From a virus (taxonomy: Duplodnaviria > Caudoviricetes), in IMG/VR virus record IMGVR_UViG_3300027991_000080, positions 1 to 64,000 of that record: a stretch of 64,000 bases of DNA. One strand, given 5' to 3'. The notes under the pieces were generated by a model. The model worked only from the letters and a program-made list of their open reading frames with translations. It was not told the origin of the DNA and ran no database searches. This document shows positions 40,117 to 63,406 of the stretch, piece by piece (within the stretch, counting starts at the first letter, position 1; every line of letters begins with the position of its first letter). The position numbers and the translations under genes were made by a program.

Positions 40117-40512
40117 ATGTTCAAGGTGGGCCTCGAGTTCGCGAACGGAACGACCGAAGACTCCAAGAAGCTCGTGTCCCGGCTGTTCACGCCGGCGGAC
40201 ATCCTCACGGCGATGCGCGATGCGCGCATGCAATTCAATACGAGCGACGTGGTGCTCGTCGCCTCCGATACCGACGCAGACGGATTCGATGCGATGCCCC
40301 GTCGCGGGTACCTCGATCGACTCCGGCGCGTGCTGGGCCATCGAGCTCCGCGTGCGCTTGCGAACATGACGATCGCTCACAAGTCAGCGCAGAAGGTTGT
40401 TCAGCTTCCAGCCGAAGATTCGGCGGCGTGGCTTGTGATCACGCGCGGGAAGGACATGCCGGTGATGTGCGTGATCTACGCCACGCCGTACAAGATTTCG
40501 GAGGCGAACTAA
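40117..40512 (+). CDS. hypothetical protein
   Basis: ATG after GAGG; strong G/C-ending codon bias. Confidence 0.65.
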   Translation: MFKVGLEFANGTTEDSKKLVSRLFTPADILTAMRDARMQFNTSDVVLVASDTDADGFDAMPRRGYLDRLRRVLGHRAPRALANMTIAHKSAQKVVQLPAEDSAAWLVITRGKDMPVMCVIYATPYKISEAN

Positions 40513-40513
40513 A

Positions 40514-40786
40514 ATGAGCGCAAAGTCAGGACTGCTGAGCGCCCTCGGGGCCATCATGGGAGGCGTTGCAGGCGCCGCCGCGGGGCACGCTGCAGCGACG
40601 ATGCGACCGCGCATCAGGTACTCGGCGGAGAGCACCGGAGACACCATCGAGGACGCTATGGTGGTCGGAGGTGCCGCTGGAGCGGTGCTCGGGGCGTTCA
40701 TCGGGGGAGCTGTCGGAGGAAGCGACGGCGCCACGCATCAAATTACCTCAACGTCAACCGCGCAGCTTCCGCCGAAGCAACTCTGA
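40514..40786 (+). CDS. glycine-zipper membrane protein
   Basis: Two GxxxG-rich hydrophobic helices. Confidence 0.7.
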   Translation: MSAKSGLLSALGAIMGGVAGAAAGHAAATMRPRIRYSAESTGDTIEDAMVVGGAAGAVLGAFIGGAVGGSDGATHQITSTSTAQLPPKQL

Positions 40787-40863
40787 CGCGCTGCAAGGTA
40801 CCGCAAACGGTACTTTTGCGGCAAATCGCCACGATTATGCCGGTCTGAGCTACCTTGTCGGCC

Positions 40864-41178
40864 ATGACGCCCGATGAGCGTATGAAGTGGCGCGAGTTCG
40901 AGAGGGAAGCTGACGAGCTCAAGGCTGAAGTACTTGTGATGTGGGGGCGGATCCGTCGATTGCAGGACAACATGGCTACGTTCAGCGACGAAACGATCGA
41001 ACGGGCCAGCCAAACCGCCCTTGAGAAGTATCGCGATGAGATGCCAAGCGAGACAAAGCTGTCGATCTCACCTCAGAAGGTGCGTCTACTCTTCACGAAC
41101 GGGCGACCGTGGGCCTTCGTGGTCTGCACTGCTCTGATCGCTATCGTGGTGCTCGCCTGGATCCTTCGGCCCAGGTGA
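40864..41178 (+). CDS. coiled-coil protein with C-terminal TM
   Basis: WAFVVCTALIAIVVLAWIL at C-terminus. Confidence 0.6.
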   Translation: MTPDERMKWREFEREADELKAEVLVMWGRIRRLQDNMATFSDETIERASQTALEKYRDEMPSETKLSISPQKVRLLFTNGRPWAFVVCTALIAIVVLAWILRPR

Positions 41179-41314
41179 TTTTTTGGGTAGTTCAGTCGGG
41201 GGAGGAGGAACGGAAGGACCGTGCGTCAACCGAGCAAGCCTCTCGAGAAACGCTTTCTCGAGTTTTTCGATGGCTATCTCGAGAGCTAGGACGCGTTCTC
41301 GAAGAGTCGGCGAC

Positions 41315-41824
41315 TTAGGCACGACGAGGAACGTAGTAGACGACCAGCGCGCCAGCAACGATGGCGAGCACTGCGCCGGTGATCCATGTGGTGGTCTTCG
41401 CGGTTTGCTTGATTCCCTCGAGCTCTTGCTCGATCTGCGTCGGGATCGACGGAACCGGATCTGGACGCTGTCCGGTATCGCTTGAGCTGGTCACGTTCTG
41501 TCCGGCGACGGTAGGAAATCCAGGACCGTTCCACGGTGTCGGCGCGGACACCTCGAACAGGTACCAGTCCCGCGGCGGGTCTGAGTCGTAGTGCTCGGTG
41601 GTTCGCACTGCGACCGTGGGCTTGTTCGATGAGAGCCACGCTCCGAACGCATCCGAGTCCTTGGCGAACACGTCGACCCAGTACTTACCGGCTGGAAGCG
41701 GGTTGTGGCGTTCGACTTTGCCGAGACCCATCCCGAGACGGATCACTCGATGACCGTTGAGATAGATCCCCTCAGGACGAATCACGGGACACGCGCCCAG
41801 GAAAGCGGTTTCTTCGCCGATCAT
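41315..41824 (-). CDS. C-terminally anchored membrane protein
   Basis: LGMGLG near N-terminus; TM WITGAVLAIVAGALVVYYV followed by RR. Confidence 0.7.
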   Translation of the reverse strand: MIGEETAFLGACPVIRPEGIYLNGHRVIRLGMGLGKVERHNPLPAGKYWVDVFAKDSDAFGAWLSSNKPTVAVRTTEHYDSDPPRDWYLFEVSAPTPWNGPGFPTVAGQNVTSSSDTGQRPDPVPSIPTQIEQELEGIKQTAKTTTWITGAVLAIVAGALVVYYVPRRA

Positions 41825-61300: not shown

Positions 61301-61920
61301 GCGCATCATTGTTTGTAAACGTTTGCAGTGTTCTCGCTGGAGACATAACTGCTTTTTCCGTCGTTTCGAACAATTCGTTGCTGTCCGTAAACTCGATCAC
61401 TACTGCCAACGCAGGTGGATCCACATTCAGATCTACTCAGTTCAACAATCACCCGTGCTTGTTGACTTGTTTTGCTGGTGCCTCTTTCGACGGACCTTCG
61501 TGGCGCAGCTTCAAAGAGTCAGGGGGAACCCGCTCAGCCGGAACCACTGTTCTTGTTCAGGGCGGATACAGCGGAGGAAGCGTCGAAGGGGCTACGCTAC
61601 CTAGCACCGGCACGGTGAACGTATCTCTCAACGGAAACGGTGCAACCACCGGGTACACTGGAAACAACTCCGGAAACCACTACGAGACACCAGGTCTTAC
61701 GGCGCCTCTCACGGTAAAATTGTTAGTAGGCGGCGGAGAGCTCGACGGAGACACTCTGCTTATATCGAAGTCTTCTTTCGGATCTTTCACCATAACTGTC
61801 ACCAATTCAGCGTCTTCCATTCTAGGGGTAATACCATCAGGAAATAGAGGATTCCTGCTAGCTAGGTACAAGGCGTCGGATGGGGACTGGGTGTTCGAGC
61901 AAGGAGGTTTCCTGTCGTGA
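58336..61920 (+). CDS. long collagen-like fibre protein
   Basis: N-terminal GKGRY-x4-YP, ~780-residue Gly-X-Thr shaft, C-terminal head. Confidence 0.9.
58408..60756 (+). repeat. Gly-X-Thr collagen-like triplet repeat
   Basis: [12 protein letters not shown] triplets with Gly-X-Gly interruptions; synonymous codons highly varied. Confidence 0.95.
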
Positions 61921-62186
61921 CAACATGTCTTCTGTTGGCTGCAGTCATTGGCGCAACGCTAATCATGGTGCGCAGCACCGTCATGGCTAGAGTCAGAAAT
62001 ATCTGGCCTGAGATGCTCGGGTGCGCGCAGTGCATCGGTTTCTGGATCGGGGTGACGGCAGGTGCGCTCGGACTCGTTGTCGCTGGGCACGGTCGAATCG
62101 TTGACGCGATCATTGTCGGGTGCGCAAACAGCTTTCTGTCTCTGCTCGCAAACGCGGTTCTCATACGTCTGCTCGAAATGGACTGA
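61917..62186 (+). CDS. DUF1360-like small membrane protein
   Basis: CAQCIGFW motif between hydrophobic helices. Confidence 0.65.
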
Positions 62187-62188
62187 AA

Positions 62189-63178
62189 ATGACGCATCTC
62201 ATCGGAAGACGCGGATACAAGAGCGAGGCGTACCCGACAAGGGGAGCTTCGACTACATCAGGGGGGACTGCACCGCTCTCAAACGTTTTCTACATCGACC
62301 CGCATTCTACAGATGCGGGTCCAGCAGACGGATCCGACGAGCATCCGTTCACCACGATTCAGCAAGCATTTGACGCGGTGTTCCCGGGAACACTGATCGG
62401 TGCCGAACTCACATTCCTCATCACTCCGTGCTTTTTCGGTGACAATGCCGGCGCGCTTGTCCTTCCTGACAACCTGACCGGTCTCTTTATGTCAATCGTG
62501 GGCCTGTCTGGTTCAAACAGACCCATACTGACAAGCGTAGAGTCCTCCGTAATCGGTTCCTCCCCAACGGTCGACACCATCACAGGGGGCGATAACTCGA
62601 GCAATATTTCGATCAGTTTCCAGTCCTGCAGCGTGAACACGATTGACCTGGGAGAGGAAGGGGTAAGCGGGGGGCGCCTGTCTTTCGACGGTGCCCAGAT
62701 CGGACAGATCGACTGCAACGTGTACGAAGTTCTCGCCGTTGCATCGGCGTTGGGTGAAACGCAATGCGCGACACTCGAGGCATACTCGAGCTCCGGACAG
62801 GATTGCACGTGGACAGCTGACGAGATTCGGGTCGACTCAGCTACTCGGTTCCAGATTGCGCAGAACAACGTAACGCTTTCGCTCAACAATCCGACAGTCA
62901 TGTCGAGGATGCCACAGGCGACCATTTCCGTCGCTGTGCCGGTCCTAGCAACCGATGCGCTTGGGTACGTTGACGTGAGCACCGTCGGGACGGAGCTCGA
63001 GGGTATCAACATCGGGGACAGTATCGTCGCCAACCCGACCACTGACCTTGCTGGCGCCGGAGCCGGAAACGGCGGATTCTTGAACTGCAGGGTCTCTGCC
63101 GCGGACACCATTCGATGCGCGTTCGCCGGGGCCTTGCCTGGAGGGGCGGCAAATTTTACATTTGCAAGAGTGAACTGA
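62189..63178 (+). CDS. spike/receptor-binding protein (beta-helix-like)
   Basis: N-terminal GRRGY-x4-YP; FYIDP...DGSDEHPFTTIQQA. Confidence 0.75.
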   Translation: MTHLIGRRGYKSEAYPTRGASTTSGGTAPLSNVFYIDPHSTDAGPADGSDEHPFTTIQQAFDAVFPGTLIGAELTFLITPCFFGDNAGALVLPDNLTGLFMSIVGLSGSNRPILTSVESSVIGSSPTVDTITGGDNSSNISISFQSCSVNTIDLGEEGVSGGRLSFDGAQIGQIDCNVYEVLAVASALGETQCATLEAYSSSGQDCTWTADEIRVDSATRFQIAQNNVTLSLNNPTVMSRMPQATISVAVPVLATDALGYVDVSTVGTELEGINIGDSIVANPTTDLAGAGAGNGGFLNCRVSAADTIRCAFAGALPGGAANFTFARVN

Positions 63179-63190
63179 AAGGATTGACCA

Positions 63191-63406
63191 ATGAGACGCA
63201 AGCTGAAGAATCTGAAGAACAAGAACGGACACTCCGCCAACGGAGCGCCGCGACAGCTCCTCGATGAGGCCGTGTACCGCGAGGCATCGGCGAAGCATGC
63301 CGGGCTGACCAAGGGATACGACAGCGAGTACAGCGGCGGGAGCAATCCGTCGCGCCCGCGGGACCAGGCGATCAGTCTCCGGTCGCGCAACGTTCCGCCG
63401 GATTGA
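63191..63406 (+). CDS. small basic hypothetical protein
   Basis: GGA RBS; last gene of the operon. Confidence 0.55.
   Translation: MRRKLKNLKNKNGHSANGAPRQLLDEAVYREASAKHAGLTKGYDSEYSGGSNPSRPRDQAISLRSRNVPPD

Follow-up and report, generated by a model that had tools for sequence, protein, structure and literature searches.

A candidate family of large tailless bacterial viruses whose particles may assemble around the genome

The DNA analysed here (the window) is a stretch of 64,000 nucleotides covering positions 1 to 64,000 of the IMG/VR virus record IMGVR_UViG_3300027991_000080, and our subject is the candidate virion module at 40,117–63,406, which holds 30 genes by our own gene calls. An earlier note, made from the letters of this stretch, had read the module as that of a large tailless, membrane-containing virus. 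Our comparison of the module, the completed genome and its relatives points to a tailless bacterial virus with double-stranded DNA (dsDNA), whose particle probably assembles around the genome instead of being an empty head into which DNA is pumped. Five genes are central to this reading (aa, amino acids):

47,377–48,027, plus strand: g88, 216 aa, transglutaminase-like Cys-His-Asp enzyme (PF01841), in 8/8 complete genomes
48,295–49,740, plus strand: g89, 481 aa, with a protamine-like N-terminal domain, three helices and a Pro/Gly-rich tail
49,846–51,177, plus strand: g90, 443 aa, probable major capsid protein, predicted single jelly roll with large insertions
51,267–51,872, plus strand: g91, 201 aa, candidate second capsid protein or penton, predicted plain single jelly roll
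51,876–52,763, plus strand: g92, 295 aa, the third of the conserved beta-rich proteins of the virion and a candidate vertex protein

Our comparison set comprised this record and seven complete relatives with terminal repeats (67–125 kb). All eight sequences have six families in common, namely a JAB protein, g88, g89, g90, g91 and g92, and a gene in the gap of the record, described below, is a seventh. The gene order from g80 to g105 is kept in 31 IMG/VR loci, in all of which g91 adjoins g90 and g92 is present. The five-gene core of g88-type enzyme, g89-type protein, g90, g91 and g92 stays in constant order down to 22–27% capsid identity; the four loci at this distance all have g92 and also carry many tail-anchored proteins, with no ATPase nearby, and in distant members a positional homolog of g89 lies upstream of the capsid gene. 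Complete genomes measure 67–125 kb, most with capsid proteins 68–78% identical to g90, and contigs reach 139 kb. Two sister taxa on the capsid tree differ by 84 versus 111 kb, the smaller genome not being end-verified. A 38.9-kb record (G017, behind locus L022), classed as having inverted terminal repeats and 49% complete according to CheckV, is probably an assembly artefact. We counted 446 homologs of g90 in 214 clusters at 50% identity and found no description of the family in a literature search that left out most subscription papers; as far as we found, it is large, diverse and apparently undescribed.

The IMG/VR record is a single contig of 76,740 bp with 59.5% GC and no end repeats, labelled as a provirus and 95% complete. 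Its last base connects to its first via 3,701 bp in three other assemblies, with identical flanks in the single assembly compared base by base, and the closed circle of 80,441 bp agrees with 80,582-bp ENA contigs minus a 141-base overlap. Such a circular assembly fits a circular genome and a permuted linear genome alike, and the provirus label looks like trimming of viral DNA. The virion module runs past the end of the window, to about 80 kb. The 3,701-bp gap codes for a 379-aa beta-rich protein, a collagen-like gene and small proteins, with no head or packaging gene and no Pfam match in the four frames scanned. The 379-aa protein is present in 8/8 complete genomes, often adjoining the integrase (L080:15572-16711); its homolog in G007 had no Pfam or PHROG match, and the loci at the greatest distance gave no match to the N-terminal domain of the family. 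Half or more of the core of the virus is present in 16 soil metagenomes and, among the runs listed, none is RNA.

Since the whole genome is closed, we could ask whether terminase, portal, HK97 or tail genes lie just outside the window, a finding that the earlier note had named as fatal to its proposal. None was found in the complete 80,441 bp. Terminase_6N (PF03237) and PF04860, the sole portal family searched in the relatives, were absent from all 27 records searched, and the HK97 capsid (PF05065), TerL_ATPase (PF03354) and Terminase_3 (PF04466) families were each absent from five records, with positive controls behaving as expected throughout. Pfam scans of nearly all genes of this genome revealed no portal, sheath, tube or tape-measure family. 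None of the Caudoviricetes hallmarks (large terminase, portal, HK97-fold major capsid protein) was thus found, and the statement that the module lacks such genes, tail components included, was borne out. If the virus were a tailed phage whose head and tail genes escape recognition, or a helper-dependent satellite, the jelly-roll proteins would serve as cement or decoration. This explanation could draw on replication genes with tailed-phage homologs at 28–38% identity, on jelly-roll cement proteins of tailed phages among the structural matches of g91 (KHP40 and Pam1, Z 6.0–6.4), and on collagen-like fibres that match tail-fibre PHROGs. The latter matches involve two members (among the best 25 of 97 families) and most likely stem from collagen repeats. 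In the 67-kb complete genome G024 all 11 proteins of at least 380 aa fall in families otherwise accounted for, and the complete genomes contain no large conserved protein without an assignment. Moreover, g90 is the most conserved gene and has the strongest codon bias, and a genome of 67–125 kb that encodes its own lysin would be large for a satellite. At the level of sequence this explanation appears largely refuted, and we regard it as very unlikely.

A packaging motor was likewise not apparent. FtsK and A32 packaging ATPases gave no match above the cut-off in 27 records, and HerA/DUF87 was detected in 6–7 of the 27, outside the virion module; HerA is absent from this genome and from the complete genomes G007, G010, G019, G024 and G025. 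The Walker-A motifs found belong to helicases, primase-helicases, Sak4-like proteins, a kinase and the patchy HerA, none of them universal, and no Walker-A protein is common to this virus and its seven complete relatives. The extension of the contig that the earlier note had recommended, with an FtsK/HerA-type ATPase and the genome ends in mind, therefore led to a closed circle without such an ATPase. As no motor was found, the DNA would have to be enclosed during particle formation. Alternatively, a tailless, membrane-lined particle could be filled by a motor that went unrecognised, be it a divergent protein, the primase-helicase or a host FtsK/HerA. Viruses of this kind typically have an FtsK-HerA ATPase (PMC8328091, PMC5332951), some relatives do have the HerA-like ATPase, and several conserved genes have no assigned role. 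Yet HerA is patchy and lies outside the module, the helicases differ between relatives, and a highly basic DNA-membrane tether would suit co-assembly better than translocation of bare DNA. We consider a motor of this kind unlikely.

The three adjacent beta-rich proteins singled out by the earlier note correspond to g90, g91 and g92 (49,846–52,763), and the jelly-roll fold that it had required of at least one of them is predicted for g90 and g91. The AlphaFold2 (AF2) model of g90 has a predicted local distance difference test score (pLDDT) of 72 and a predicted TM-score (pTM) of 0.71. Its VIA structure matches are mostly jelly-roll domains (best Z 6.4), including SPV1 6oj0_Z (Z 5.8, root mean square deviation (rmsd) 7.8, 125 aligned), PRD1 P5 (Z 5.5) and HCIV-1 6h9c_D (Z 5.4). 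Since single-domain jelly rolls of 100–180 aa align over g90 residues from about 45 to 427, the model suggests one barrel with strands from both chain ends. The fit to PRD1 1w8x is poor (Z 5.0, rmsd 6.7), and a double jelly roll as in Varidnaviria was not found, at moderate model confidence. The AF2 model of g91 (pLDDT 83) shows a jelly roll at residues 28–168 and terminal helices. Its best matches are the Orf virus scaffold (Z 6.8) and PBCV-1 (Z 6.7), the top three being viral capsid or scaffold proteins, and it also matches SPV1 6oj0_Z (Z 6.0, rmsd 3.9, 109 aligned). Structure Z scores below 8 support the fold and no particular ancestry. For g92, a jelly roll is suspected from the strand pattern. 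Furthermore, g90 has the highest G+C content at third codon positions among genes of more than 150 aa and is followed on its 3′ side by a strong terminator-like hairpin (51,199–51,233), which fits the expectation for a main capsid protein.

Sequence searches linked these proteins to no known family. Neither g90 nor g91 had a tblastn match among 50,697 GenBank phage records; g90 matched nothing in Pfam, PHROG or PDB sequences, g91 and g92 nothing in those of these databases that were searched, and hidden Markov model (HMM) searches of PDB sequences with the capsid candidates gave no match. Foldseek against PDB and BFVD returned nothing for g90 at E<=0.001, and ESM Atlas scores for g90 and g92 were 0.82 or lower, with no usable lead. 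Profile-profile comparisons among g90, g91 and g92 were not significant (best probability 4.5%) and gave no support for paralogy. In one relative g91 is tandemly duplicated (L023:11296-12599). A tRNA-Arg called by ARAGORN at 51,759–51,855 on the minus strand lies antisense within the conserved g91 and is probably false.

The Cys enzyme of the earlier note is g88, which matches Transglut_core (PF01841, E 3e-4) and has C109, H143 and D159 invariant. In L002 (L002:6316-7944), L012 (L012:6295-7935) and L073 (L073:5563-7104) the homologs of g88 carry an intein immediately in front of the catalytic Cys, and so does that in L016 (L016:6265-7908) as judged by Pfam and length. All of these inteins are of the Hint type, some with LAGLIDADG, and that of L073 is a mini-intein. 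Inteins usually occupy essential active sites, and their position at the catalytic Cys therefore suggests that the g88 site works and is probably essential. We propose that g88 is a maturation protease, or else a cross-linker or wall hydrolase; its substrate is discussed with the assembly model below. The neighbouring g89 carries the basic segment that the earlier note had recognised; the segment is real and is the N-terminal domain of g89, not a separate protamine-like protein. Residues 1–191 contain 83 Lys and Arg with a net charge of +72, and by our calculation neutralising the genome would take about 2,200 copies of g89. The fusion of a basic domain with hydrophobic helices is kept in the relatives examined, and we propose that g89 is a DNA-membrane tether and core protein. 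Homologs of g89 are 1,000–1,200 aa long in one clade with 117–139 kb genomes (L017, L018, L019, L020, L022, L070) and 440–840 aa elsewhere; since other 110-kb genomes have short ones, the long form may be a clade effect.

Membrane proteins and spike candidates surround this core:

46,355–47,380, plus strand: g87, 341 aa, tail-anchored membrane protein with an ISTG-transmembrane (TM)-basic tail
52,760–53,721, plus strand: membrane proteins g93, 83 aa, with two hydrophobic segments, and g94, 237 aa, with an LSTGA-TM-basic tail
53,735–55,135, plus strand: g95, 466 aa, with LysM-like and peptidoglycan-binding domains, an LSTGA-TM anchor and a long basic tail
55,393–63,178, plus strand: g97, g98, g100, g101, g102 and g104, which share an N-terminal G-R/K-x-Y-x-YP peptide

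A 19-residue hydrophobic segment is found in 13 of the 30 module genes versus 9 of the 75 genes left of 40 kb. By our judgement about 10 of the 13 look like real anchors (g77–80, g87, g89, g93–95, g103), and the segments of g82, g88 and g102 are probably buried strands. The earlier count of at least eight membrane-associated proteins thus holds, and the description of the virus as large (at least 64 kb), tailless and membrane-rich is supported. The gene for g94 is present in 29 of the 31 loci. The domains of g95 were matched by PF01471 (E 1e-16) and LysM (E 0.004), and we propose it as an entry protein. Among the six peptide-sharing genes, which also enclose the small g99 and the three-TM g103, g102 is collagen-like and 1,194 aa long. 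Of the 1,207 proteins of the eight genomes, 24 carry the peptide at the N-terminus, and it was found at none of 196,129 other positions. The six spike proteins of the earlier note are therefore confirmed as a set of genes with a common N-terminus; that they are spikes or fibres plugging into the shell by this peptide is our proposal.

These membrane proteins could instead belong to an enveloped or pleomorphic particle, in which the jelly-roll proteins would form an inner shell or a temporary scaffold, like poxvirus D13. Many of the proteins are tail-anchored, one of them with peptidoglycan-binding domains, g91 matches the Orf virus scaffold best, and genome size is very flexible. The Orf virus match, however, ties with many unrelated jelly rolls, the DNA-binding/membrane fusion in g89 sets the membrane beside the DNA, and the spike candidates are mostly without TM anchors and share a docking peptide, which suggests an outer protein shell. 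A particle of this sort seems improbable to us.

We favour a particle that assembles around its genome, and a possible sequence of events is as follows. Many copies of g89 would first use the Arg/Lys-rich domain to bind the DNA and condense it, while the hydrophobic helices of g89 would hold the nucleoprotein on a patch of host membrane; the basic C-terminal tails of g87, g94 and g95 would lie on the DNA side, and the large domains of these three proteins on the side of the shell. On the other face of the membrane g90 and g91 would form the jelly-roll lattice, with g92 probably at the vertices. As the lattice closes, it would turn the membrane into a vesicle around the DNA, so that an ATPase would be unneeded and shell size could follow genome size. 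Maturation of the particle would then fall to g88, which would most likely cleave g89 or other internal proteins. Variable fibres and lectin-like proteins would dock on the shell via the shared N-terminal peptide, and g95 would grip peptidoglycan during membrane-mediated entry. Finally, the GH25 endolysin would free the progeny, and an integrase would allow lysogeny.

Several points weigh against this model. All structure matches are below Z 7 and are rated by the tool as a common arrangement, and they include the tailed-phage cement proteins mentioned above; the g90 model is poor at residues 222–231, 263–303 and 382–396, and structural models support the jelly roll for g90 and g91, the suggestion for g92 coming from its strand pattern. 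The three helices of g89 are moderately hydrophobic (mean 1.0–1.4). Lipid and an icosahedral shape are read from gene content, in a family known from its genes alone. The absence of an ATPase is drawn from sequence searches, and a motif-less or host motor is possible. ATPase-free packaging has been linked to small genomes (PMC5894146). Moreover, no host-flanked provirus was seen for this probably temperate virus.

A close parallel in design is SPV1 (Portogloboviridae), which has the single-jelly-roll (SJR) proteins VP4 and VP10, a layer of lipid inside and a circular dsDNA wound with nucleocapsid protein, with no packaging ATPase among its assigned genes (PMC8459092). An SJR shell, a layer of lipid and a core of nucleoprotein would be common to both, the membrane being deduced from genes in our case. 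In contrast, SPV1 is an archaeal virus of Sulfolobales with 20 kb, non-lytic and without replication genes, whereas the present viruses are bacterial, have 67–139 kb, an endolysin and an integrase, and encode a 443-aa capsid candidate, a membrane-fused nucleoprotein and a Cys enzyme. We found no sequence similarity to SPV1, and a genome of 80,441 bp with a bacterial-type lysin departs from the circular genome of about 20 kb and the Sulfolobales host that define Portogloboviridae.

The earlier note had proposed a relative of P23-77, SH1, HCIV-1 and SNJ1. In these Halopanivirales (Singelaviria), which also include HHIV-2, small and large SJR genes are adjacent and accompanied by membrane proteins and variable spikes, and bacterial members exist (PMC5332951). 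Two adjacent SJR genes are found here as well, at the level of fold and with a capsid role that we propose, and this part of the claim stands. Kinship does not follow: there was no HMM match to solved Halopanivirales capsid proteins and no sequence similarity, and Z scores of g90 and g91 against HCIV-1/HHIV-2 chains (5.2–5.8) were tied with unrelated jelly rolls. Genomes of Halopanivirales reach about 30 kb, and their conserved FtsK-HerA packaging ATPase is missing from the morphogenesis module here, which is why we do not file the virus in this order (PMC5332951, PMC8328091). The size range of 16–31 kb quoted in the note for such tailless viruses should be widened by SSIP-1, a tailless membrane-containing bacterial virus with a circular 44-kbp genome, T=49 and probably SJR proteins (PMC6260650). 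SSIP-1 is the largest described comparator that we found, at about half the size of this genome; the phage records without a tblastn match to g90 or g91 perhaps do not include SSIP-1 itself. For PM2 (Corticoviridae), DNA is thought to be enclosed as the shell forms (PMC6356626), and FLiP and Odin are without a packaging ATPase (PMC5894146). What sets this group apart from the present viruses is a double-jelly-roll capsid and a small genome, of about 10 kb in PM2 and FLiP. The arrangement of core, protease and fibres also resembles adenovirus, by analogy only and with no claim of homology. The DNA of adenovirus is condensed by basic core proteins, its particle is matured by a cysteine protease, and its fibres attach through a short N-terminal peptide that contains Tyr-Pro; adenovirus differs in being eukaryotic, with a double jelly roll, no membrane and an unrelated protease fold. 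Taken further, and as a tentative idea that we would not yet back, the family may represent a separately evolved lineage of high rank among bacterial viruses, one that belongs to neither Singelaviria nor Varidnaviria. Such a lineage would have its own jelly-roll set, motor-free packaging of 67–139 kb with a membrane-tethered protamine, a shell size that follows the genome, a transglutaminase-like maturation protease, spikes interchangeable via one peptide and, in one branch, rhomboid-processed anchors.

The remaining features of the genome are as follows:

330–26,716: replication and recombination half, with Dam, UvrD, Sak4-like, ParB-HTH, PD-(D/E)xK, RecD-like, SF2 helicase, primase-helicase (17,621–20,371) and ThyX
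29,357–29,911, plus strand: rhomboid intramembrane protease, co-occurring with LSTGA-anchored proteins
39,129–40,097, plus strand: GH25 endolysin (E 1e-14) and an adjacent small TM protein, a candidate holin
40,117–42,219, g79 and g80 on the minus strand: g76–g80, a conserved small protein and four small membrane proteins
42,488–46,245, plus strand: g81–g86, clade-conserved genes including RadC/JAB and Pro/Gln-rich proteins
43,414–44,016, plus strand: RadC/JAB protein, in the virion operon of 8/8 complete genomes, possibly a nuclease or peptidase
44,461–46,050, plus strand: 529-aa Pro/Gln-rich protein, candidate scaffold or extended tape protein
63,191–63,406, plus strand: g105, 71-aa basic protein, in 7/8 complete genomes

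The helicase, primase, recombinase and ThyX modules reported in the earlier note were confirmed by Pfam (UvrD, AAA_24 for the Sak4-like protein, RecD-like, SF2 helicase, Prim-Pol, Thy1, Dam, ParB-HTH and PD-(D/E)xK). Its description of an unusual chimeric lineage is overstated. In at least five of the seven complete relatives we found 21 of 30 virion-module genes versus 5 of 55 replication-half genes, three relatives have PolA and SNF2 instead, and the matches to tailed phages include ThyX at 38% and the Sak4-like protein at 28% identity. Judged from these comparisons, a stable virion core is combined with a replication half that can be exchanged, as expected of ordinary gene sharing and not of a single fusion. 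Besides the Dam methylase at 330–1,157, two adenine-methylase-like genes lie in tandem at 15,116–16,566, as seen by eye only. Two tandem paralogous Cys-rich proteins with signal-like N-termini (22,073–23,395, minus strand) may act in exclusion or at the host surface.

In the set of records with a completeness of 90% or more, the LSTGA-TM-basic motif occurs in 11 of 11 with the rhomboid and in 2 of 9 without it (Fisher p 0.0005). Since several rhomboid-negative records are related to one another and the search for the motif was confined to the 20-kb loci, we treat this association as a lead; the rhomboid and the proteins with such tails (46,355–47,380 and 53,008–55,135) are a possible rhombosortase-like pair. 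Modular proteins of 271, 950, 201 and 300 aa with basic C-terminal tails (31,634–36,857, minus strand) have no Pfam match and show domains shuffled among relatives; they may be co-packaged anti-host proteins. An xE(A/S)R cleavage motif in the proteins at 32–37 kb was rejected (18 observed versus 13.9 +/- 3.7 in shuffled sequences). A second decoration-like family, whose members share a domain and an N-terminal LPxKQ(I/V)D motif, lies beside collagen-like genes (L001:11085-14892, genome 71.1–74.9 kb, and L080:16960-18502). Two large methyltransferase/glycosyltransferase/HtrL-like/TPR fusion genes follow the spike cluster (63,477–64,000; L001:3477-8308) and probably glycosylate virion proteins.

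The GH25 lysin and the peptidoglycan-binding domains indicate a bacterial host. Two different g90 genes were found on small contigs in one Polyangiaceae metagenome-assembled genome (MAG), and one g90, split over two small contigs, in a Binatia MAG; in all, 1 of 401 Polyangiales and 1 of 301 Binatia genomes carry g90. A non-viral plasmid or integrative element coding for a cellular surface structure or compartment would account for the ParB-HTH protein, the integrase and the glycosyltransferases. The rarity of g90 in these genomes and its place on small contigs argue against such an element, as do the endolysin, the protamine-like protein and the phage-type replication genes, and we give it hardly any credence. 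Distant g90 homologs occur in a Patescibacteria and a Binatia MAG, and MAG labels are therefore unreliable guides to the host. The lipoprotein-like g71 (38,070–38,699) has a Gly/Thr linker, and homologs of its C-terminal domain were found in 10 of 301 Polyangiales versus 0 of 301 Binatia genomes, the only two groups compared. A myxobacterium of Polyangiales is by a narrow measure our preferred host. Infection of Myxococcota, as the earlier note had suggested, thus has weak and indirect support in the Polyangiaceae MAG and the g71 domain, set against the near absence of g90 from Polyangiales.

It has been assumed that large dsDNA viruses of prokaryotes have tails and require a motor driven by ATP. 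If our reading is true, the size limit of motor-free packaging would rise several-fold, to 67–139 kb in a family of 214 clusters at 50% capsid identity, and tailless viruses of this size would slip past current hallmark libraries. With complete genomes that have and lack HerA and a twofold size range at about 70% capsid identity, the family makes the relation between genome size and capsid size testable. Should the host assignment hold, these would be rare viruses of soil myxobacteria. Overall, they would represent a large version of a known particle design and possibly a separate lineage.

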